Source: an uncultured Elusimicrobia bacterium
Lineage (GTDB): Bacteria > Elusimicrobiota > Elusimicrobia > 2-01-FULL-59-12
Direction: 5' to 3'
NCBI GenBank assembly: GCA_963702895.1
Contig: OY969767.1
Location: forward strand, 1,472,001 to 1,536,000
Length of the DNA stretch: 64,000 nt
Positions 10,155 through 37,744 of this stretch are shown piece after piece. A program made the position numbers and the translations under genes. The notes beneath the pieces were generated by a model. The model did not search any database and had not been told where the DNA came from. It worked only from the letters and a program-made list of their open reading frames with translations. Every line of letters begins with the position of its first letter. Positions within the stretch are counted from its first letter, which is position 1.

Positions 10155-11438
10155 TTACTCTCCTTGGCTTCCGTAGACTTCGAGAAACTTTCTCTTTTCT
10201 TCCTTGAAGTTACCGTCGATAAGAGATTGGCGAATTTTTCGCATCAATTTTAATAGAAAGGCCACGTTATGTAAAGACGCAAGGCGAAGGGCCGAGAGCT
10301 CTCCAGACCGGAACAAATGATGCAGGTAAGCGCGCGTGTAGCGACTGCAAAGATCGCAGTCGCACGCAGGATCAACAGGTCGGAAATCCTCACGGTAGGG
10401 CGCGTTTTTGAGGTTCAGTTTTCCCTGGGAAGTGAATAGCTGCCCGTTACGACCGTTCCTGGTCGGTAACACGCAATCAAATTGGTCGATCCCCAGGTCG
10501 ACCGCTTCCCATAAATCTTCCGGGGTCCCCACCCCCATCAGGTAGCGGGGCTTGTCCTGAGGCAAGAGATCCGTGGAGAGCGCGATCATCTCATGCATCG
10601 CGGCCTGGGGCTCGCCGACCGAAAGGCCTCCGATCGCGTAACCCGGGAAATCGAGGTCCACCAGTTCCCGGGCGCTCTGCCTGCGGAGTTCGGGATAGAT
10701 GGAACCCTGGGTGATGGCCCACAATTGGGGTGGTGTTACTCCTTCCCCCCTTGTGGGGGAAGGCAAGGGATGGGGGGATCGTCCACCCCCACCCTCACCC
10801 TCCCCCATCCAGGGGGAGGGGCACTTTTTCATAGCGTCCTGGCAGCGCTTCGCCCAGCGCGTCGTGATCTCCAGAGCCCGGCGCGCGTGATCTTCCGCGC
10901 AAGGGTAAGGCGGACATTCATCGAAACACATGAGGATATCGGAACCGATCGCCAGTTGGATCTCCACGGCTTTCTCCGGGCTTAAAAAATGGAGCGACCC
11001 GTCCAGATGAGACCGGAACTCGACGCCTTCTTCCGAAATGCGCCTGAGCTGTTCCATGCTAAAAACTTGATAGCCCCCCGAATCCGTCAGAATCGCGCGG
11101 TCCCAACTCATAAATTTATGGAGTCCACCCGCTTTGGCGATCACCTCCACGCCGGGGCGCAGATACAGATGGTAGGTATTGGCGAGGATCAACTGGGATT
11201 GAAGTCTTTCAAGGTCCTGGGATAGGAGCGTTTTGACGGACCCCTGTGTGCCGACGGGGGCGAAGACCGGCGTATCGACCACGCCATGCCGGGTCATCAA
11301 TCGGCCAACCCGCGCCTTGGAACCCGCGCACCGTGCCACGACCTCAAAACACCTGTCACCCCGGCGGAAGCCGGGGTCTATCATGATGGATCCCCCGCTT
11401 AAGACCGCGGGGGATGACGATTTTTGCGTTTCTGTCAT
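10155..11438 (-). CDS. tgt: tRNA-guanine(34) transglycosylase with two translated repeat insertions
   Basis: TPVFAPVGT, ANTYHL, TDSGGYQ, GGLSVGE, CDCDLC Zn site. Confidence 0.97.
   Translation of the reverse strand: MTETQKSSSPAVLSGGSIMIDPGFRRGDRCFEVVARCAGSKARVGRLMTRHGVVDTPVFAPVGTQGSVKTLLSQDLERLQSQLILANTYHLYLRPGVEVIAKAGGLHKFMSWDRAILTDSGGYQVFSMEQLRRISEEGVEFRSHLDGSLHFLSPEKAVEIQLAIGSDILMCFDECPPYPCAEDHARRALEITTRWAKRCQDAMKKCPSPWMGEGEGGGGRSPHPLPSPTRGEGVTPPQLWAITQGSIYPELRRQSARELVDLDFPGYAIGGLSVGEPQAAMHEMIALSTDLLPQDKPRYLMGVGTPEDLWEAVDLGIDQFDCVLPTRNGRNGQLFTSQGKLNLKNAPYREDFRPVDPACDCDLCSRYTRAYLHHLFRSGELSALRLASLHNVAFLLKLMRKIRQSLIDGNFKEEKRKFLEVYGSQGE
10741..10820. repeat. Inverted double-hairpin palindromic repeat inside tgt
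   Basis: CCTTCCCCC-CTTGT-GGGGGAAGG and CCCTCCCCC-ATCCA-GGGGGAGGG. Confidence 0.85.
11355..11418. repeat. REP-like GTCA...TGAC doublet inside the tgt N-terminus
   Basis: GTCACCCCGGCGGAAGCCGGGGTCTA...GGATCCCCCGC-TTAAGACC-GCGGGGGATGAC. Confidence 0.9.
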
Positions 11439-12535
11439 AGAATCAGCATCGCGTCACCATAAGAGTAAAAGCGATAGCCCCGTTGGATGGCGACTTCGTA
11501 AGCGGGGCGCAGCGAGAATGGCGGTATCGGAGTATCGGAGTTTCGGGGTATCGGTGTTACATCAGCTCTAACCCCGATACTCCGGTACCCCGTTACTCCG
11601 GTACGGTCACTGTAGAAGGCGCACGCCAAGAGCAGGGGCGTCGAACCGGGGAGGTGAAAGTTCGTGATCAGGGCATCGACGGCCTTAAAGCGGTAGCCGG
11701 GATAGATATAAAGCTTGGCCTCGCCCCGGCCGGAAGAAAAGGTCCCCGACGCGTCGCAGATCGTTTCCAACGTCCGCGTCACGGTTGTGCCAACCGCGAT
11801 CAGGCGTCGGCCTTCCTGCTTCGCCCGATTCAAGGCCTTTGCCGTGTCGGCGCTCACTTCATACATTTCGGAAAGCATCGGGTGTTCTTCGATGGTTTTC
11901 GTTCGAACAGGACGAAACGTCCCCCAACCCACATGTAAAACCAGCGAGGTCGTCTCGATCCCTCTGGACGTGAGACGCCTTAAAAGATCCTCCGTGAAGT
12001 GGAAACCCGCTGTTGGGGCCGCGACAGCCCCCTCCGTCCTGGCATAGACCGTTTGATAGCGCTCGACATCCGCAAGATTGACAGAGTTGCGCTTGATATA
12101 AGGAGGCAGCGGCATTTCCCCATGGCGATCCAGATAGCTCCGGATATGATTGCTTGAAAACATCAGCCGCCATTCCCCTTCCGCCAAACGCTCAGACATC
12201 TCGGCACGCAGGCCCTCCGGAAACTGGAGGGTCGTCTTTTGTGTCGCGCCTCGCACAAGCGCCTTCCAGGAGGCATCCTCTTGGGCCAACAGCAGGACCT
12301 CCACTTTGCCGCCGGAAACCTTCGTTCCTCTTAATCGGGCTGGGAAGACTTTCGTGGCGTTGGTCACGAGCAGGTCGCCTGGCCGAAGATGTTCGTCCAG
12401 TCCAAAAAAATAGTCGTGGTTGAGGGTTCCCTGGTTCCGGTCCAGGACCATGAGGCGTGAATGATCGCGCGGCGAAACAGGAGCTTGCGCGATTGTGCCT
12501 GCCGGTACATCGTAATGAAAGTCCTGTAATTTCAC
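11435..12535 (-). CDS. queA: S-adenosylmethionine:tRNA ribosyltransferase-isomerase
   Basis: MPLPPYI, YQTVYA, GAVAAPTAGFHF, TNFHLP, YRFYSYGDAM. Confidence 0.97.
   Translation of the reverse strand: MKLQDFHYDVPAGTIAQAPVSPRDHSRLMVLDRNQGTLNHDYFFGLDEHLRPGDLLVTNATKVFPARLRGTKVSGGKVEVLLLAQEDASWKALVRGATQKTTLQFPEGLRAEMSERLAEGEWRLMFSSNHIRSYLDRHGEMPLPPYIKRNSVNLADVERYQTVYARTEGAVAAPTAGFHFTEDLLRRLTSRGIETTSLVLHVGWGTFRPVRTKTIEEHPMLSEMYEVSADTAKALNRAKQEGRRLIAVGTTVTRTLETICDASGTFSSGRGEAKLYIYPGYRFKAVDALITNFHLPGSTPLLLACAFYSDRTGVTGYRSIGVRADVTPIPRNSDTPIPPFSLRPAYEVAIQRGYRFYSYGDAMLIL
11523..11605. repeat. Inverted arrays of 8-bp tandem repeats inside queA
   Basis: 4x RGTWTCGG, spacer, then 4x CCGDTACN. Confidence 0.85.
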
Positions 12536-13716
12536 AGGGCGACCACTTTCGCTTGAGGATAATAAACCTTAAGAATTTCTTTATATTTATGTCCCTCCAG
12601 GGCACGGCCCCTGGCGCCCCACTGACACAGACCGACACCATGGCCCCATCCGAGCCCTTCGAAGGTCACGGATTTCTTATCTGCTTTGAGCTCCGTGATG
12701 AGGGTGCTTCGCAGGGCCTCAGGCCCCACCGCCAGGCGGAAACGGTTTCCAGCCAGATGGATTTCTCCCTTCGAGGTCTTCAACAGCACGGTCTGCGCCC
12801 TGCCAGAAGGGGACTGTTGGAGGATATCGACAGACCTGATGGATTGAACTCGTACGCCGGCCCGCCGCAATCGTTCACGCAGGGCAGAATAGCTGAGGGT
12901 CAAGTCCCATTGATGCCTGGGGTAAGCTGCGCAGTAGGTGTGATCGAGCGTGACGTCATAGATGGCCTCTTGGGAATCGATGTTCCAGACATTCTCAGGT
13001 CGCTCGGTACGGCCGCCACAAGCCGCATGAAAAAACGCACGGACGGGCCTGCCTGTGGGATCGACCAAAATGCGGCCCTCGGTCTCCAGTACCGCGCGGT
13101 TGGTTTCTGATGATTCGACATCCTGACCGCCATAGACCTGGTCCATGACGGTCGAAGACACATCAAAGCGTTCGCGCATGCGAACCCTTTTGTTGGCCAT
13201 GGCATAAGAGCGGGAGACGACCGCCTGCGCTTTAAGAGCTTCGATGGGCCAGCTCGGATGGACCTCCTTGGGCAGAACACCAAACAAGTATTCCGCGATC
13301 TGCAGATATTCCACGACGTCATAGCGGCCACGGCCCAAAGGATGAAACAGAAGCACCCCTCGGTATCGTTGGCCGTTCACGGTGAGACTATCCTTGGGCC
13401 TGTCGGGCATCACGAGCACATCTCCTTTGAAACGGTGCGTCCCGATCATCAGCGTCGAACCCGAAGCCCTGACTTTGAGCGAGCTACGACTTGTGCGGAT
13501 GCGATCGTTCTTGAGAAGACCGTAATGAAACGTTCCTGGGCAGGAAAGCCGGCTGGGATGTTGGGTGGATAAGATTCTGACTCGAATATGGTCCGAAGAC
13601 GCTGGAAGTCGTAGTATCGCCGTTGCCGTTTCTGCCGTAAAACCGGTGGCACCCCCTGACAAAAGGAGAAAGGATAGACAAGACGTCAGGAAAACCCTGA
13701 AAACCCTGAAAACCAT
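12532..13716 (-). CDS. SpoIID/LytB domain protein
   Basis: YLFGVLPKE, EALKAQAVVSRSYA, DQVYGG, GWGHGVGLCQWGA; TAATG overlap gives start 13716. Confidence 0.93.
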   Translation of the reverse strand: MVFRVFRVFLTSCLSFLLLSGGATGFTAETATAILRLPASSDHIRVRILSTQHPSRLSCPGTFHYGLLKNDRIRTSRSSLKVRASGSTLMIGTHRFKGDVLVMPDRPKDSLTVNGQRYRGVLLFHPLGRGRYDVVEYLQIAEYLFGVLPKEVHPSWPIEALKAQAVVSRSYAMANKRVRMRERFDVSSTVMDQVYGGQDVESSETNRAVLETEGRILVDPTGRPVRAFFHAACGGRTERPENVWNIDSQEAIYDVTLDHTYCAAYPRHQWDLTLSYSALRERLRRAGVRVQSIRSVDILQQSPSGRAQTVLLKTSKGEIHLAGNRFRLAVGPEALRSTLITELKADKKSVTFEGLGWGHGVGLCQWGARGRALEGHKYKEILKVYYPQAKVVAL

Positions 13717-13937
13717 TAGTGTTTCCCCAGAAACCTTGAAAGCAGCGACAGGAGGATGCTGATCACCAAACACGTCGTGACAGGAAAGTAGATTGTGAAA
13801 TGATCGCGCTTGATGGCGATATCGCCTGGCAGCTTCCCGAAAAAGGGGACCTTGCCAGCGACGGAAAGGAAAATCCCCAGAACGACGGTGGCTAAACCGA
13901 AATAGATCAGCACTTTCCCGAGAGCCTGCGGTGTCAT
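13716..13937 (-). CDS. DUF2905 small membrane protein
   Basis: GKLPGDI...YFPVTTCLVISILLS. Confidence 0.9.
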   Translation of the reverse strand: MTPQALGKVLIYFGLATVVLGIFLSVAGKVPFFGKLPGDIAIKRDHFTIYFPVTTCLVISILLSLLSRFLGKH

Positions 13938-13946
13938 GAGAGGACT

Positions 13947-14975
13947 TTAAAACAGCTGGTCCTGGGTTGTTTTCGGTGCCGGTTTTCCAAGATGCCTGTA
14001 AGCATGATCGGTCGCCAGTCGCCCACGCGGCGTCCGTGACAGAAATCCGCACTGGATCAGGAAGGGCTCATAGACATCGGTGAGCGTATCGACATCTTCG
14101 GAGAGGGCGACCGCGAGCGTCTCGATGCCAACCGGCCCTCCTCCAAATTTTTCAATGAGGGTACTGAGAAGTCGACGGTCCATGGTATCGAGACCGCGAT
14201 CATCCACATCCAACTGCCGGAGGCCGTCCGCCGCCACCGCCAGAGAAAGCGTTCTGCCGGCGGAGGTGTCCGCAAAATCGCGGAGGCGCCTGAGCAAGCG
14301 GTTGGCAATGCGTGGCGTCCCGCGGCTGCGCCGTGCGATCTCCCGGAGACCCCCCTGGTCAGCGCTCACTTTCAAAATGACACTCGACCTTTGAAGAATT
14401 TGCAGGAGCTCCTCCTCCGTATAGAACTCAAGATGGGCCGTGATGCCAAAGCGGTCGCGCAAAGGGCTCGTTAAAAGCCCAGCCCGTGTGGTCGCCCCCA
14501 CGAGCGTAAAACGCGGCACGGGGAGATTGATGGTCTTAGCGCTTGGGCCTTCGCCAATAATGACATCCAGCTTAAAATCCTCCATGACGGAGTAGAGTGT
14601 TTCCTCCACGACATGATTGAGGCGGTGGATTTCATCGATGAAGAAGACATCGCCCTCCTGAAGGCTTGTGAGGATGGCCGCGAGGTCCCCTTTGCGCTCC
14701 AGGACGGGCCCGGAGGTGACGCGCAGCCCACAACGCATCTCATGCGCGATGATCCCGGCCAGCGTCGTCTTGCCGAGACCCGGTGGAGAATAGAAGAGGC
14801 AGTGATCGAGAGGCTCTTTGCGCTGGGAAGCGGCCTCAATAAAGACACGGAGATTTTTCTTCATGCGCTCTTGACCCACAAACTCCGCCAGCGTCTGGGG
14901 ACGCAGGGACTGCTCGATCGGCTCTTCTTCGGCGACGGCCTGGGGAGTCAGGGATGGCGTTTGGGTTGTACTCAT
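13947..14975 (-). CDS. ruvB: Holliday junction branch migration helicase RuvB
   Basis: [36 protein letters not shown]. Confidence 0.98.
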
Positions 14976-15580
14976 GAAAGCTGTTTGAGGGCCTCTTTGA
15001 CCAGTTCGGCCGTGCTGGTCTGTGAACGCGAGTGCGACGGTAAGCGATCCAAGGCGGCTCTGGCCTCCGGCTCGCGATAGCCCAAGCTCACGAGCGCCGC
15101 GATCGCTTCACTGGCACCCGTCGCCTCAAGGGAGCCCGACCACTTCTCTCGTCCGGCCACGCGTAAAGCGGCGATACGGTCCTTGAGGGCCGCAATGATC
15201 TTGTTGGACGTCTTCGGGGTAAAACCAAAGAGGCTGGTGAGGGTCCTGGTGTCTCCTCCGAGCACCGCTCTGCGAAAATCGGGGGCTGATTTCGCAATTT
15301 TATCCAAATAATCGAGCGCTTTCTTGGATCCGGTGCCGGGTATTTCACGCAGCAAGAGGTAGATTTCTTTTTCCTCCAGGGACAGAAAACCATAGAGCGT
15401 GACAGCGCCGCCATACATCGCCATCGCTTCCACAATAAAAAGTTGGATCTCTTCGCCCACCGAAGGCAATCGGTCGTAGGCTGAGAGCGTTACGAACACC
15501 TCATAGCCGATGCCGTGCACATCCAGCAGGGCCTGGCCAGGCGATTTATGCAGCAGAGAACCCCGTAGACTGCCGATCAT
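14972..15580 (-). CDS. ruvA: Holliday junction branch migration protein RuvA
   Basis: [27 protein letters not shown]. Confidence 0.96.
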
Positions 15581-16233
15581 ACAACCGCCTTTAGGCCGTC
15601 ATCCCGGCGGCTCGTAAGCCGGGATCCATCATGATAGACCCCGGGTCTCCAAACGTCAGGCGACCCGGCCCGCCGGACGTGTGGAGGGCCGGCTTTCGCC
15701 GGGGTGACGTCGTTAAGTAAGGCACGATTTGTCTGGAGATGGCAGAGCGCGATCGCCAACGCATCGGCCGCATCATCAGGCTTGGGCAGCTCCTTGAGAC
15801 GGAATTGGCGCTGGACCATCGACTGCATCTGAAGCTTCGAAGCCGATCCGAAACCGGTCATCGCCATCTTCACCGCGCGGGGGTTGTATTCCAGGACAGG
15901 AAGTCCAGCCTCCGCCGCCACAAGCACGATCACGCCGCGGGCCTGAGCGGTGGCCGCGATGCTCACAGCAAATTTCGCGAAAAAGAGTTCTTCGATGGCC
16001 AGCACCTCCGGCTTGTGGGTCTGGATGAGGCTCGCCAGTTCTTGTTTGATCTGAAGAAGACGTTCCGGCAGGGCGGTCGAGGAGGGCGTCACAATCGCGC
16101 CAAAATCGATGAGAGCGATCCCCTTCGGTGCTTTTTCAAGCACGCCCCAGCCGGTGGTGGCCAGTCCCGGGTCGACACCCAGCACTCGACAACTTGACGC
16201 GGGGAAACTGGGACGTGGAGAACTGTCGATCAT
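15577..16233 (-). CDS. ruvC: Crossover junction endodeoxyribonuclease RuvC with repeat-derived N- and C-terminal extensions
   Basis: LGVDPG, AIEELFF, EYNP, DDAADALAIA; start uncertain (ATG 16233 or 16251). Confidence 0.93.
   Translation of the reverse strand: MIDSSPRPSFPASSCRVLGVDPGLATTGWGVLEKAPKGIALIDFGAIVTPSSTALPERLLQIKQELASLIQTHKPEVLAIEELFFAKFAVSIAATAQARGVIVLVAAEAGLPVLEYNPRAVKMAMTGFGSASKLQMQSMVQRQFRLKELPKPDDAADALAIALCHLQTNRALLNDVTPAKAGPPHVRRAGSPDVWRPGVYHDGSRLTSRRDDGLKAVV
15598..15708. repeat. REP-like doublet with a nested hairpin dyad, inside the ruvC 3' end
   Basis: GTCATCCCGGC...GCCGGGATCC...TAGACCCC[48 nt dyad]GGCTTTCGCCGGGGTGAC. Confidence 0.9.
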
Positions 16234-16268
16234 TTCTCCGTGTCCCCGCATCACCGCGTCACCGCGCC
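16196..16268. repeat. Inverted arrays of degenerate 8-bp repeats at the ruvC start
   Basis: GACGCGGG/GAAACTGG/GACGTGGA ... TCCGTGTC/CCCGCATC/ACCGCGTC/ACCGCGCC. Confidence 0.7.
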
Positions 16269-16273
16269 GGTGG

Positions 16274-17029
16274 TCACTTCGAGGCTGCGCTTTCAATGAC
16301 GTCCTTGGGGATATCAAAATTTGCGTACACGTTCTTGACGTCGTCGTGATCTTCCAGATCGTTCATGAGAGACATCATCTGCTGCGCCGGGGACCCGGTA
16401 AGTTTGACATAGGTCTTCGGCAAAAGGGTCACCTCTGCCGAAAGCGTGGGGACCTTCGCTGCCGCAAACGCCTTTTTCACAGACTCAAAATCCGCGGGCT
16501 GCGTGATGACCTCAAAGATATCGGGGTCTTCCGACTGAATGTCCTCTGCCCCGGCGTCGAGCGCCAGCGTCATGAGCTGATCTTCGGTGGCATTGGATTT
16601 CTCCACGGTCAGGATCCCTTTCGAGGAAAACATCCAGCCCACCGAGCCCGTCTCGCCCAGGTTGCCGCCGTGTTGAGAAAAAAGGCGGCGGATTTCGCCC
16701 GCGGTGCGGTTTTTATTGTCCGTCGTCACCTCAATCATGAGCGCCACACCGCTCGGGCCATAGCCCTCATAAACAAGCTCTTCGTAGGTTGCCCCTGGCA
16801 ATTCGCCTGTGCCCCGCTGGATGGCCTTCTTGATATTGTCGGCCGGCATGTTCGCCTCCCGAGCATCATCCATGGCCTTGCGAAGTCGGGGGTTCGACTC
16901 CGGGCTTCCCCCGCCGATTTTGGCAGCAATCACGATTTCGCGGATAATCTTCGTAAAAAGCTTGCCCCGCTTAGCGTCGGCCAAGCCCTTCTTATGCTTA
17001 ATTCCTGCCCAACGTGAATGTCCTGACAC
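16274..17029 (-). CDS. yebC: YebC/PmpR family regulator
   Basis: (M)SGHSRWAGIKHKK, YEGYGPSG, TDNKNRT; GGAGGAGG RBS before GTG 17029. Confidence 0.96.
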   Translation of the reverse strand: MSGHSRWAGIKHKKGLADAKRGKLFTKIIREIVIAAKIGGGSPESNPRLRKAMDDAREANMPADNIKKAIQRGTGELPGATYEELVYEGYGPSGVALMIEVTTDNKNRTAGEIRRLFSQHGGNLGETGSVGWMFSSKGILTVEKSNATEDQLMTLALDAGAEDIQSEDPDIFEVITQPADFESVKKAFAAAKVPTLSAEVTLLPKTYVKLTGSPAQQMMSLMNDLEDHDDVKNVYANFDIPKDVIESAASK

Positions 17030-17050: not shown

Positions 17051-17069
17051 CCCCGCTTTCGCGGGGATG
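17051..17069. repeat. Single REP-like hairpin upstream of yebC
   Basis: CCCCGC-TTTC-GCGGGGATG. Confidence 0.65.
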
Positions 17070-17221
17070 GAGCTGTTTCCTGTAAGCTTTTTGCCGGTCA
17101 CATTTTAACAGATTCGTGCCCTCTTCCTCGATGGATCTGGGCAACAGCTTGACTGTTCTGCGTCCGAACGTGACGGAATCAGGTGATGCGGCGTTCTTCC
17201 GCCGAAGGTTAGAGCAGCCCC

Positions 17222-27425: not shown

Positions 27426-27645
27426 AATCGCCTCACTTAAGCGGTTTAATAGGCTCTGGCTTCCGCCCAGCTTGCAATCTCTGCCAGTCCAGCATCAATT
27501 CTTTCCTATGAAGTTCTGCCCATGCCTCGACTAACCGACGCTGTCTTTTTGGGAGAGAGCCGGATATTGTTTCAATCGGATCAATCCCATAAACAGCCAC
27601 GTGCTCCTGATAATAGGCGTGAAAATGTGCTTTATGGTGTCGACC

Positions 27646-28917
27646 CACTGGTGTCCGGTAAAAGTTAGCCGAAGCTTAGCCATAGCTGAGGCTCCATAGT
27701 TCGAACTTTTGAAAGATTCTTTTCGGGCATACGCAATAGATCGATGAGACTGAGCCGGTCGAGAAGGGTATTCTGAACCAACCGGTGCAGCAAGAACAGC
27801 GAACGCTGGAATCGTGTCTGGAACTTGATGTAGGCCAGGAGCAGGAAATAGCACAAGGCCACCCAGATTTGGGTAAAGACGGCATTTTTGGAAGTGCCGA
27901 GGAACGTTTTGATTTTGAGATGCTGCTTGAGCCACTTGAAGAACAGCTCGATCTGCCAACGGGCCTTATAGATTTGGGCAATGGTGAAAGCGGCCAGTTT
28001 GAAGTTATTGGTCATAAACTGGTAAGTGATGGCGGTGTCGGCATCGTAGTAGCCGATGAGTCGTAAAGGTTTCTTGTATTTCGTCTTGGTGCGTGGGCCT
28101 GTAAGCTCAATGGTGCGATCGTACAACAGGCCGTTTTTTAAGGGAATTTCTTGCTGTCCGGTGATGCGGCAGGTGAGGTTGTCTTTGGCACGGGTGACGA
28201 AGAAAGAGCCGAGATCGTCGATCTGACGGTACCAGCCGTAATCCATGTAGCCGCGGTCGAAGACATAGATGCTGTCCGGTTCTAAGGGAAAAAGACGTTT
28301 GGCGGCATGGTCGAAGCACTTTCCATCGGTGATGACGGCAAAGGAAGGGATTTGGCCACGCAAGTCCAGTTGGCAATGCAGTTTGATCGCTCCTTTGGCC
28401 TGTTTAAAGGTGGCCCAAGGGAAAAGGTTCAGGCACAGTTCCATGTTCGTGGAATCGAAGCAGGTCACTTTGTGTTTAAAACGGAACTGATGCTTAGGCG
28501 CGATGGCTTGGCACCGATCCAGCAGGTGATAGAAGAGCTTTTCCATGATGCGCCAGTCGCGCCCAGCGTTAGCGTCAGCCAGGGTAGAACGTTTCACTGG
28601 CGGCAGCCCCAAGTGATAGAGCTTGGGTTGTTGCGTGCCTAAAGCCGTCTGGATGTCACGCAGGCTTGTTTTACCGCTGGCCTGAGCATAGAGGAGTGTC
28701 GTGAGCTGGTTCCAAGTCGAGAATTTTTTAACGTAGGCGTCGCCGCCGAAGCCAGAAACGGCTTGGTCGAACTGATGTCGTGGTAAAAGGAGAAGCAGTT
28801 GGTTCATTATGGTGTTAGAATGCATGAGCGAAATCCTCCCTCGGACAGAATGGTTTGCTTGGTCGCAATCATTCTACCGAACCAGGGGGATTTCGCATTT
28901 TTAACCGGACACGAGTG
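27646..28917 (-). mobile_element. IS4-family insertion sequence, copy 1 (1272 bp)
   Basis: TIRs CACTGGTGTCCGGT / CACTCGTGTCCGGT; 9-bp TSD GTGTCGACC. Confidence 0.96.
27665..28825 (-). CDS. IS4-family DDE transposase (DUF4372 + DDE)
   Basis: SLRDI, DST, VFDRGY, YKARWQIELFFK (YREK motif). Confidence 0.96.
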   Translation of the reverse strand: MHSNTIMNQLLLLLPRHQFDQAVSGFGGDAYVKKFSTWNQLTTLLYAQASGKTSLRDIQTALGTQQPKLYHLGLPPVKRSTLADANAGRDWRIMEKLFYHLLDRCQAIAPKHQFRFKHKVTCFDSTNMELCLNLFPWATFKQAKGAIKLHCQLDLRGQIPSFAVITDGKCFDHAAKRLFPLEPDSIYVFDRGYMDYGWYRQIDDLGSFFVTRAKDNLTCRITGQQEIPLKNGLLYDRTIELTGPRTKTKYKKPLRLIGYYDADTAITYQFMTNNFKLAAFTIAQIYKARWQIELFFKWLKQHLKIKTFLGTSKNAVFTQIWVALCYFLLLAYIKFQTRFQRSLFLLHRLVQNTLLDRLSLIDLLRMPEKNLSKVRTMEPQLWLSFG

Positions 28918-35711: not shown

Positions 35712-36472
35712 GTTTGAATAAACCGCCTACAGTTTTCGATAGGTTTCAGGAGCTTCAAACAAGGCACCGTCTGTCTTGACTGAGCCCGCTTCGAGAACCT
35801 CGTTGAGCATCATGACGGTGGGGCCCGTCGCACCGAGGGTTTTCTCCATTTCGATGACCCAGAAGGGACGTTCTGAGCTGGCCAGAGGCTTGCGCTCATC
35901 GGATTCGGGAGGTGCTCCAAGCCCCGCCGCCAGAGAGGCGACAAATTCCGTGATCTCACCCGAGGCTCCGGGAGCCCCTTCCGCTTTCGGTTGCCAGCTC
36001 CAGGCGGCAAGCTGTCGCACGGTCACCCCTTGGATCTGGGCGCGCGCGCCGCGGTAGGCCGCTTGGATCTTCTTGAAGTCTTCTGGGTTGCCGTTCATCT
36101 CGAGGAGCTGTTTATTGAGCGTCCTCAGCAGCCAGCCGAGCGTCAGCTGCTCGGACCGATGCTGGGTTAAGAGATCCTCGCTGAAGCGCTCCTCCGCTTT
36201 CCGAAACTGAACGACCGAGGCGGCTTTCTCGGTCACCCACAGTTTTTCGAGCAGCGTCTCGGTCGCGACCACTTGCCCTGTGCCGGCGTTCGAGAAATCC
36301 ACCTCCACGCGGATCGTATAGGACTGGCATGGAAAACCGTTGACTTTCGCCGAGCCCAGCGGGCCTGTGACACGGGGTTCAATTCGTGAGACTTTGAGAG
36401 AAGCTGGATCCATGGAAGCGCCGGACACCGCCGGGCCGCCCTCATCGAAGGACGGTACATAGGGTGCCACAC

Positions 36473-37744
36473 CACTGGTGTCCGGTAAAAGTTAGCCGAA
36501 GCTTAGCCATAGCTGAGGCTCCATAGTTCGAACTTTTGAAAGATTCTTTTCGGGCATACGCAATAGATCGATGAGACTGAGCCGGTCGAGAAGGGTATTC
36601 TGAACCAACCGGTGCAGCAAGAACAGCGAACGCTGGAATCGTGTCTGGAACTTGATGTAGGCCAGGAGCAGGAAATAGCACAAGGCCACCCAGATTTGGG
36701 TAAAGACGGCATTTTTGGAAGTGCCGAGGAACGTTTTGATTTTGAGATGCTGCTTGAGCCACTTGAAGAACAGCTCGATCTGCCAACGGGCCTTATAGAT
36801 TTGGGCAATGGTGAAAGCGGCCAGTTTGAAGTTATTGGTCATAAACTGGTAAGTGATGGCGGTGTCGGCATCGTAGTAGCCGATGAGTCGTAAAGGTTTC
36901 TTGTATTTCGTCTTGGTGCGTGGGCCTGTAAGCTCAATGGTGCGATCGTACAACAGGCCGTTTTTTAAGGGAATTTCTTGCTGTCCGGTGATGCGGCAGG
37001 TGAGGTTGTCTTTGGCACGGGTGACGAAGAAAGAGCCGAGATCGTCGATCTGACGGTACCAGCCGTAATCCATGTAGCCGCGGTCGAAGACATAGATGCT
37101 GTCCGGTTCTAAGGGAAAAAGACGTTTGGCGGCATGGTCGAAGCACTTTCCATCGGTGATGACGGCAAAGGAAGGGATTTGGCCACGCAAGTCCAGTTGG
37201 CAATGCAGTTTGATCGCTCCTTTGGCCTGTTTAAAGGTGGCCCAAGGGAAAAGGTTCAGGCACAGTTCCATGTTCGTGGAATCGAAGCAGGTCACTTTGT
37301 GTTTAAAACGGAACTGATGCTTAGGCGCGATGGCTTGGCACCGATCCAGCAGGTGATAGAAGAGCTTTTCCATGATGCGCCAGTCGCGCCCAGCGTTAGC
37401 GTCAGCCAGGGTAGAACGTTTCACTGGCGGCAGCCCCAAGTGATAGAGCTTGGGTTGTTGCGTGCCTAAAGCCGTCTGGATGTCACGCAGGCTTGTTTTA
37501 CCGCTGGCCTGAGCATAGAGGAGTGTCGTGAGCTGGTTCCAAGTCGAGAATTTTTTAACGTAGGCGTCGCCGCCGAAGCCAGAAACGGCTTGGTCGAACT
37601 GATGTCGTGGTAAAAGGAGAAGCAGTTGGTTCATTATGGTGTTAGAATGCATGAGCGAAATCCTCCCTCGGACAGAATGGTTTGCTTGGTCGCAATCATT
37701 CTACCGAACCAGGGGGATTTCGCATTTTTAACCGGACACGAGTG
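36473..37744 (-). mobile_element. IS4-family insertion sequence, copy 2 (1272 bp)
   Basis: Same TIRs and length as copy 1; 9-bp TSD GTGCCACAC. Confidence 0.96.
36492..37652 (-). CDS. IS4-family DDE transposase
   Basis: Protein identical to 27665..28825. Confidence 0.96.
   Translation of the reverse strand: MHSNTIMNQLLLLLPRHQFDQAVSGFGGDAYVKKFSTWNQLTTLLYAQASGKTSLRDIQTALGTQQPKLYHLGLPPVKRSTLADANAGRDWRIMEKLFYHLLDRCQAIAPKHQFRFKHKVTCFDSTNMELCLNLFPWATFKQAKGAIKLHCQLDLRGQIPSFAVITDGKCFDHAAKRLFPLEPDSIYVFDRGYMDYGWYRQIDDLGSFFVTRAKDNLTCRITGQQEIPLKNGLLYDRTIELTGPRTKTKYKKPLRLIGYYDADTAITYQFMTNNFKLAAFTIAQIYKARWQIELFFKWLKQHLKIKTFLGTSKNAVFTQIWVALCYFLLLAYIKFQTRFQRSLFLLHRLVQNTLLDRLSLIDLLRMPEKNLSKVRTMEPQLWLSFG

Follow-up and report, generated by a model that had tools for sequence, protein, structure and literature searches.

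In-frame insertion of dispersed repeats into conserved proteins has been established for Rickettsia palindromic elements (RPE), several palindromic families of which lie in unrelated conserved genes, some of them twice (Ogata et al. 2000, 2002, as related in PMC10969869 and PMC3733652), and for GTAG/CGTC-tagged repetitive extragenic palindromic sequences (REPs), including double hits in uvrA and uvrB (PMC10969869, PMC3733652, PMC3184786). Apart from Rickettsia, such repeats were known in a small number of REP-rich genomes, in most cases from a single superfamily at a time. Here we describe an operon of an uncultured Elusimicrobia bacterium in which tgt, queA and ruvC carry five repeats in open frames of the minus strand, two in tgt, one in queA and two in ruvC. 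The operon lies in a stretch of 64,000 nucleotides (“the window”, contig OY969767.1, positions 1,472,001 to 1,536,000), to whose positions the coordinates given below refer unless a genome is named. The genome under study (G000; 2.72 Mb, single contig, 57% GC) was compared with ten relatives of the same family (G001 to G010), a wider family search yielding no further genomes. The operon unites three unrelated repeat classes, for each of which G000 offers a candidate partner gene. While in-frame repeats as such are known from RPE and intragenic REPs, the new observation is that different repeat families reuse the same protein sites.

CGTC-tagged REPs (Di Nocera et al. 2013, PMC3733652), among them RPE-4 and RPE-6, are identical with the Ssn-related motifs (SRM) of Ssn GIY-YIG nucleases (Chenal et al. 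2025, PMC11893778), for which cleavage of single-stranded DNA has been demonstrated and a mobile origin merely proposed. Intragenic copies are known, often in DNA repair genes (PMC3733652, PMC11893778), and 2% of the NTS copies of N. meningitidis lie inside genes (PMC11893778). For TM(ECO) of E. coli K-12, exclusively intergenic positions and no linkage to mobile genes have been described in a paper (Holder et al. 2015, PMC4666352) whose accessible text mentions neither ycjD nor an endonuclease. Heptameric and octameric simple repeats (Rehm et al. 2015, PMC4692102) are dispersed 7-8 base runs, mostly intergenic with an intragenic minority. REPtrons, in which a REP-associated tyrosine transposase (RAYT) is combined with REPs or REPINs, consist of a small gene between hairpin repeats, gene-less copies of which occur genome-wide (PMC3733652).

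Since the in-frame inserts of G000 work like RPE, they are best regarded as a variant of the RPE phenomenon. As in RPE, dispersed palindromes lie in frame in conserved genes, the orthologs are empty, the placement is in loops or at termini and the fold is kept. The precedent invoked by a preceding sequence-only reading, with several families in frame and orthologs empty, hence fits. In contrast to RPE, G000 harbours three unrelated classes each with a tie to a cassette gene, there is no conserved peptide, and the sites are reused by other families in relatives. Kinship with RPE, which were compared by description, is conceivable for the CGTC class only, since RPE-4 and RPE-6 are themselves of the CGTC type. 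In the literature searched, outside of which most subscription papers fell, no paper was found on reuse of one protein site by different repeat families, nor on Elusimicrobia repeats, DUF559 with BoxC or four-helix-bundle genes with tandem repeats; precedents for intragenic REPs in tgt, queA or ruvC may stand in Additional file 3 of PMC3733652, which lay outside the literature search.

The five inserts and their candidate cassette genes

The inserts are located as follows:

10741..10822, minus strand: BoxC/triplex-motif-type double hairpin, in frame in a helix-to-strand loop of Tgt (residues about 207-233)
11349..11434, minus strand: CGTC-REP/Ssn-related-motif dimer, directly after the ATGA start of tgt (residues 2-30)
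11516..11612, minus strand: one long hairpin made up of convergent 8-base-unit runs, placed in frame within the C-terminal QueA loop
15595..15712, minus strand: composite CGTC-REP/SRM dimer that contains a second, nested module; in frame at the RuvC C-terminus
16195..16275, minus strand: hairpin of convergent 8-base units, located after the yebC stop and before the RuvC core, adding 81 nt to the empty site with the frame kept

They constitute three classes (four families plus one nested module): CGTC-REP/Ssn-type at the tgt N-end and the ruvC C-end, BoxC/triplex-type in the tgt loop, and convergent 8-mer runs in the queA loop and at the ruvC N-end. The sequence-only reading, which inferred at least three distinct repeat types in one operon, is supported in that several unrelated families are inserted in frame; the five repeats are located where it had placed them and their frames are open. 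All five fold with z scores of -3.3 to -4.8, with 0-1 of 200 shuffles being equally stable. Single seeds detect 144 genomic loci for the ruvC C-end, 141 for the tgt N-end, 66 for queA, six for the tgt loop and one for the ruvC N-end, whose family is rare (two matches in G000 and five in G005; five loci with a second seed). An assembly artefact is ruled out for the inserts as a class by the many genomic copies, the kept frame and two 151-nt contigs of run X1, possibly themselves derived from the source sample, which run across the ends of the ruvC C-terminal repeat without any difference.

The CGTC inserts share the CGTC tag, the 8-9 bp stem, the CCA-like tail and the head-to-head dimers of CGTC-REPs and SRMs, and each of the four CGTC units in the operon deviates from the published SRM pattern by one mismatch. 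This pattern has 147 exact matches in the genome, 121 of them within the CGTC family, compared to 29 and 18 in two shuffles. Two of nine GIY-YIG genes (G000:543339 and 554279; PF01541), which are single-domain like the Ssn genes and encode 96 and 97 aa, are bracketed by inverted CGTC units, three of the four units being exact SRM matches. A PDB search gave no match for the GIY-YIG protein. Compared with the 2% reported for NTS, 18 of 199 CGTC-led elements lie in frame inside ortholog-checked genes alone; in addition, CGTC units of G000 nest with a second module. Elsewhere in the genome (G000:C1:1813193-1813693), two tandem GIY-YIG genes are separated and flanked by tRNA-end stubs bearing the nested hairpin module of the ruvC insert.

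The tgt loop insert contains, at 10786-10820, the sole genomic match to the TM(ECO) consensus at up to two mismatches (none in two shuffles), the other copies of the wider BoxC family showing no such match. In contrast to TM(ECO) in E. coli K-12, however, it is not intergenic but lies within a coding frame, as do eight more internal members of the wider BoxC/PIT/TM(ECO) family, which moreover brackets DUF559. The sole DUF559 gene of G000 sits between arrays of the wider BoxC family. A survey of the class returned 24 DUF559 loci, of which 21 full-length ones were examined and three weak partial ones left out; in 16 of the 21, one of the two flanks has at least two pattern hits in its first 200 nt or so (random windows: 0.9%), and the remaining five display similar hairpins by eye. 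With a DUF559 locus of G001 the tgt loop insert shares 92% over 38 nt, and its best blastn matches among cassette loci are in DUF559 loci of G006 and G001, not in that of G000 itself.

The queA insert matches the flank of a four-helix-bundle gene (G000:730125) with 97% over 35 nt. Its 8-mer unit surrounds one such gene while other 7-mers surround other members of this family (PF05635), which is shared with excised 23S rRNA intervening sequences. Catalogued 7/8-mer runs are present on both sides of four of the ten four-helix-bundle genes, on one side of two and on neither side of four (background 0.7%). Comparable short-unit tandem repeats exist in cyanobacteria as short tandemly repeated repetitive sequences (STRR). 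What sets the G000 runs apart from the published 7-8 base repeats is that they are convergent, form a long hairpin, lie in frame and consist of units which also surround PF05635 genes. At one of these genes (G000:C1:497134-497600) the frame continues into its own downstream 7-mer array and stays open over 182 codons.

Going beyond the sequence-only reading, each repeat class flanks a small cassette gene in G000, and relatives carry other repeats at the same sites. Because of the former observation the inserts look like gene-less ends of small-gene cassettes (GIY-YIG, DUF559, four-helix bundle). The arrangement resembles that of REPtrons in that a small gene lies between hairpin repeats of which gene-less copies are scattered through the genome; in G002, moreover, the QueA insert matches the flank of a Y1 transposase. 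It differs in that G000 holds only one 89-codon Y1 fragment, which lacks such repeat flanks, so that a RAYT is rejected as mobiliser there, and in that the candidate partners adopt other folds, their mobilising role being putative. A search for GxxExxY nucleases (PF13366) found none. The Y1 transposase of G002 (L210, on G002:C138; about 210 residues) is flanked by a palindrome family which also occurs in frame in queA of that genome.

Empty sites, reading frame and genome-wide distribution

Alignment with orthologs, a check proposed together with the sequence-only reading, revealed the five insert sites to be empty in most members of the family. From the start of Tgt to its first strand relatives have 1-7 residues compared to 29 in G000; the Tgt loop comprises 11 residues in G004 and 40 in G000, the QueA loop eight in G003 and G005 and 34 in G000, and 54 codons make up the RuvC tail in G000 as against 11 in both G003 and G005. 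A single 253-nt contig of run X2 (depth 2.1) skips 11349-11434 and bears 17 other letters instead, a net difference of 23 codons; it differs from G000 at two of 87 nt on the tgt side and at 10 of 96 nt on the queA side. These replaced letters do not amount to a clean target-site duplication of the kind left by miniature inverted-repeat transposable elements, and the other orthologs are too distant for nucleotide edges to be drawn. The X1 and X2 contigs cover small parts only, so that gaps in their coverage are uninformative.

At the N-end of RuvC, most family members possess no ATG near the core. Instead, a TTG within the last yebC codons, preceded by AAGGA, is present in G000, G002-G005, G007 and G010 (by eye). 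The spacer between the yebC stop and the RuvC core exceeds that of G003 by 81 nt in both G000 and G005 and by 141 nt in G008, each time a multiple of three, while in G006, where the spacer differs by 82 nt, there is no TTG and an ATGA start stands at the yebC stop. On account of the kept frame and the conserved upstream TTG the ruvC N-terminal repeat is probably translated. The sequence-only reading called the repeats translated; all five lie in open frames, and for this one translation is deduced from the TTG rather than seen. In this region (16274-16306) ruvC appears to start at that TTG, its ribosome site being built from yebC codons; ATG starts are used instead in G006 and G009.

The solved structures of Tgt, QueA and RuvC align with the G000 proteins with interruptions at the inserts only, QueA for example matching 1vky on either side of its insert. 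In an AlphaFold model of Tgt (12-row alignment, pTM 0.80), residues 1-27 and 209-233 have a pLDDT below 50 and the loop joins a helix to the next barrel strand. Loops of this kind in TIM barrels face away from the active site.

With fourteen seed sets we found 521 elements in the genome, a floor since uncatalogued families exist. An ortholog check against 2.28 Mb of G004 gave 1009 of 1014 pairs in true frame. Within these, 58 elements lie in frame between anchored blocks, distributed over 43 genes, 13 of which hold two or three; 14 stand before the stop, nine supply the stop, 82 are found at N-termini with uncertain status and one in an aligned core. A simple codon model assigns the 357 elements elsewhere to positions between genes (323), inside genes (23), at N-termini (10) and at a C-terminus (1). 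About 96 of the 521 (18%) are firmly coding. The density, 58 per 1.02 Mb of anchored coding DNA versus 323 per 0.47 Mb of non-coding DNA, is about 12-fold lower in coding DNA. The genome-wide pattern anticipated by the sequence-only reading does exist, the 1009 ortholog-checked genes containing in-frame copies at 58 internal and 14 C-terminal positions. A test which makes no use of families points in the same direction, as 63 of 186 sites longer in G000 match at least four other loci, compared to seven of 1000 control segments.

In the count of copies within coding sequences, likewise proposed beforehand, 58 of 59 internal copies preserve the frame; the exception, a BoxC copy, lacks one base of its family pattern. 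Split genes were searched for by a test which detects only genes with a large surviving fragment. Of the eight breaks it returned, one coincides with a repeat, one is an artefact caused by an upstream tRNA and six are free of repeats. Two breaks without repeats (G000:C1:977990 and 1429975) affect genes which look like rho and rpoD, and are therefore likely single-base assembly errors. Composites of at least two seed families make up 89 of the 521 elements, hence repeats do sit within repeats. A stop-free frame of 12,935 codons contains at least three in-frame 7/8-mer hairpins (G000:C1:750171-751232).

The internal inserts, whose median length is 26 residues, contain much Pro, Arg, Ser and Thr but little Leu, Ile and Phe. 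That such repeats yield useful new peptides is not supported: the inserts are of low complexity, in Tgt predicted to be disordered, differ between lineages and erode, with shortened remnants present in G007 and G008.

The ATGA overlaps of queA/tgt and ruvC/ruvA, which the sequence-only reading had emphasised as preserved, are both present, but do not reflect a genome-wide rule. Among 207 junctions coupled in G004, the G000 start lies near the upstream stop in 146 of 177 without a repeat and in 11 of 30 with a repeat, which is near chance and rules out selection for translational coupling as a general rule. The intact couplings of this operon belong to the surviving third.

Reuse of insert sites and its possible origin

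Among the seven operon proteins, aligned from up to 11 family genomes, four of 130 variable segments differ by at least six residues, and these four contain all internal inserts. Classified by eye, the Tgt loop is occupied by BoxC types in G000, G002, G007, G008 and contig L306, whereas G003, sister to G000, has an 8-mer run there; it is short in G004, G006, G010 and L307. The C-terminal loop of QueA harbours the 8-mer insert in G000 versus a copy of the genome's own DUF559 flank in G004 (83% over 95 nt); in G002 a different QueA loop is filled by the Y1-transposase flank (80% over 83 nt). As the queA 8-mer family is abundant only in G000 (11 genomes searched) while silent sites between the hosts are saturated, the inserts are young or refreshed.

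Six of 12 repeat sites of G004 coincide with the 58 of G000, where 0.15 (4553 segments) or 0.55 (1255 long segments) would be expected, and five of the six hold different families (by eye). At two unshared G004 sites the G000 counterpart carries uncatalogued tandem repeats. A first count confined to 261 length-variable sites gave six shared of 64 and 15 with about 3.7 expected, which is not significant, unlike the counts over 4553 and 1255 segments; the result therefore depends on the denominator. Outside the lineage, the Tgt loop could be read in 130 of 160 loci, which do not represent a random sample; 123 have 10-21 residues and seven have 40-62, the latter all being Acidobacteriota records filled by differing hairpin or heptamer repeats. 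These seven (L235, L237, L241, L242, L244, L246 and L248) have a longer loop stem in common, each with a different repeat.

We consider it probable, albeit with considerable reservation, that the inserts are gene-less copies of cassette ends which pass a filter for frame and loop, are nearly neutral, and whose slots are refilled by the family active in the respective lineage. The five inserts would be non-autonomous copies of the ends of three unrelated cassettes present in G000, namely an Ssn-type GIY-YIG nuclease between CGTC hairpins, a DUF559 nuclease between BoxC hairpins and a four-helix-bundle gene among 7/8-mer runs. Copying would be accomplished by the cassette proteins, most likely via single-strand cleavage at the hairpin and repair. 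In keeping with the observed distribution, copies would land mostly between genes, coding ones surviving only with an open frame and in a surface loop or at a terminus, where they would be translated as a floppy, near-neutral peptide. A loop or gene junction already holding dispensable hairpin DNA would thus present a slot to be overwritten or re-entered by the active family, a cause suggested by the pattern of occupied sites. That conserved proteins carry long-lived slots, preferentially re-entered by gene-less ends of unrelated cassettes (Ssn GIY-YIG, DUF559, four-helix bundle, Y1) with the hairpin DNA being both target and neutral landing place, we propose only tentatively. Such loops, the Tgt loop in at least two phyla, would then be natural recorders of each lineage's mobile-repeat activity. 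If refilling were indeed targeted, this would point to a general rule governing the places at which old proteins acquire new coding sequence.

Several points weigh against the cassette-end reading. From the observed family identities, cassette flanks, empty sites, frame filter and site reuse it has to infer copying, translation, neutrality and attraction to old repeats. The flanks of the DUF559 cassette in G000 are of a different subtype than the tgt insert, four of ten four-helix-bundle and five of nine GIY-YIG genes are devoid of catalogued bracketing repeats, and a cassette for the ruvC N-terminal family was looked for in G000 and none found. The orthologs are too distant at the nucleotide level to define target-site duplications, and G005 may owe its collinear ruvC N-terminal insert, equal in length to that of G000, to inheritance or transfer rather than to an independent event. 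Site sharing, finally, rests on one relative and 12 sites with about three apparent false positives, and its p-values assume equally tolerant segments.

The main rival is survivor bias, i.e. independent insertion anywhere with very few tolerant loops, so that lineages coincide without any attraction to earlier repeats. It is well compatible with the depletion in coding DNA, with the loss of coupling at most repeat junctions as by chance, and with all internal inserts being located in loops of variable length anyway. Yet the overlap with G004 would then limit the usable sites of the 1009 genes to about 116 (58 x 12 / 6), far fewer than insertion-scanning experiments suggest, and the many composite elements show repeats sitting in repeats. 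We regard survivor bias as an unlikely, if serious, account of the shared sites. Were it nevertheless correct, nature would have carried out a clean insertion scan on about 1000 genes, and annotators would have reason to be wary.

Domestication, be it as mRNA hairpins pacing translation or decay or as new interaction loops, could draw on the strong hairpins, on one and the same Tgt loop having been filled repeatedly in two phyla and on the equal-length ruvC N-terminal insert kept in G000 and G005. The shared sites, however, conserve neither sequence, length nor family, close relatives are empty, several reading frames on both strands are used and shortened remnants occur, which renders this explanation improbable.

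Least probable of all is that RNA-level removal or skipping, or untranslated terminal repeats, leave proteins of normal length: the four-helix-bundle cassettes do share PF05635 with excised 23S rRNA intervening sequences, start sites are predicted from sequence only and N-terminal REPs may be untranslated according to Di Nocera et al. 2013 (PMC3733652), but the frame kept in the internal cases would be needless if the RNA were removed, no in-frame start lies between the tgt repeat and the invariant F31, and the ruvC inserts keep the upstream-TTG frame in G000, G005 and G008 while G006, lacking the TTG, has an ATGA start.

If refilling is targeted, the empty and filled Tgt and QueA loops would also offer concrete substrates for finding the enzymes which spread BoxC and heptamer repeats, a spread still unexplained in the literature consulted.

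Operon layout and integrity of the genes

The minus-strand series comprises yebC, ruvC, ruvA, ruvB, a DUF2905 gene, a SpoIID/LytB gene, queA, tgt and yajC. The following genes were delimited:

10155..11438, minus strand: tgt, tRNA-guanine(34) transglycosylase, 427 aa including two inserts; TIGR00430 503 bits, cut-off 307
11435..12535, minus strand: queA, 366 aa including one insert; NF001140 402 bits, cut-off 324
12532..13716, minus strand: SpoIID/LytB-domain gene, anchored span without an insert of at least six residues
13716..13937, minus strand: DUF2905 small membrane protein gene (PF11146, E 3e-22)
13947..14975, minus strand: ruvB, without insert
14972..15580, minus strand: ruvA, without insert; start overlaps the ruvC stop (ATGA)
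15577..16296, minus strand: ruvC, 239 aa, inserts at both ends; NF000711 192 bits, cut-off 163; probable TTG start at 16296 within the yebC end
16274..17029, minus strand: yebC/PmpR family gene, without insert

The catalytic motifs are intact, as had been claimed. Tgt, QueA and RuvC exceed the curated NCBIfam cut-offs, RuvC retains its acidic active-site motifs, and D119, D173, D321, C359, C361, C364 and H390 of Tgt are invariant in 12 orthologs; the roles of the three aspartates and the zinc ligands are assigned after Zymomonas Tgt. Proportions of non-synonymous differences (pN) are 0.10-0.27 versus 0.72-0.82 for synonymous ones (pS). As silent sites are saturated, correction worked in two of nine pairs only, giving dN/dS values of 0.04 and 0.10. 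Judging from the intact motifs and purifying selection, the three enzymes probably still work.

The SpoIID/LytB gene opens with a short 9-nt tandem repeat (13690-13716) and overlaps the DUF2905 stop (TAATG). The yebC leader contains a single CGTC-like hairpin without tag just upstream of the ribosome site (17051-17070), and yebC starts with GTG in G000 and with ATG in relatives. A 1.27-kb insertion sequence, of which the genome holds seven copies, is found in the window at 27633-28900 and 36460-37730.

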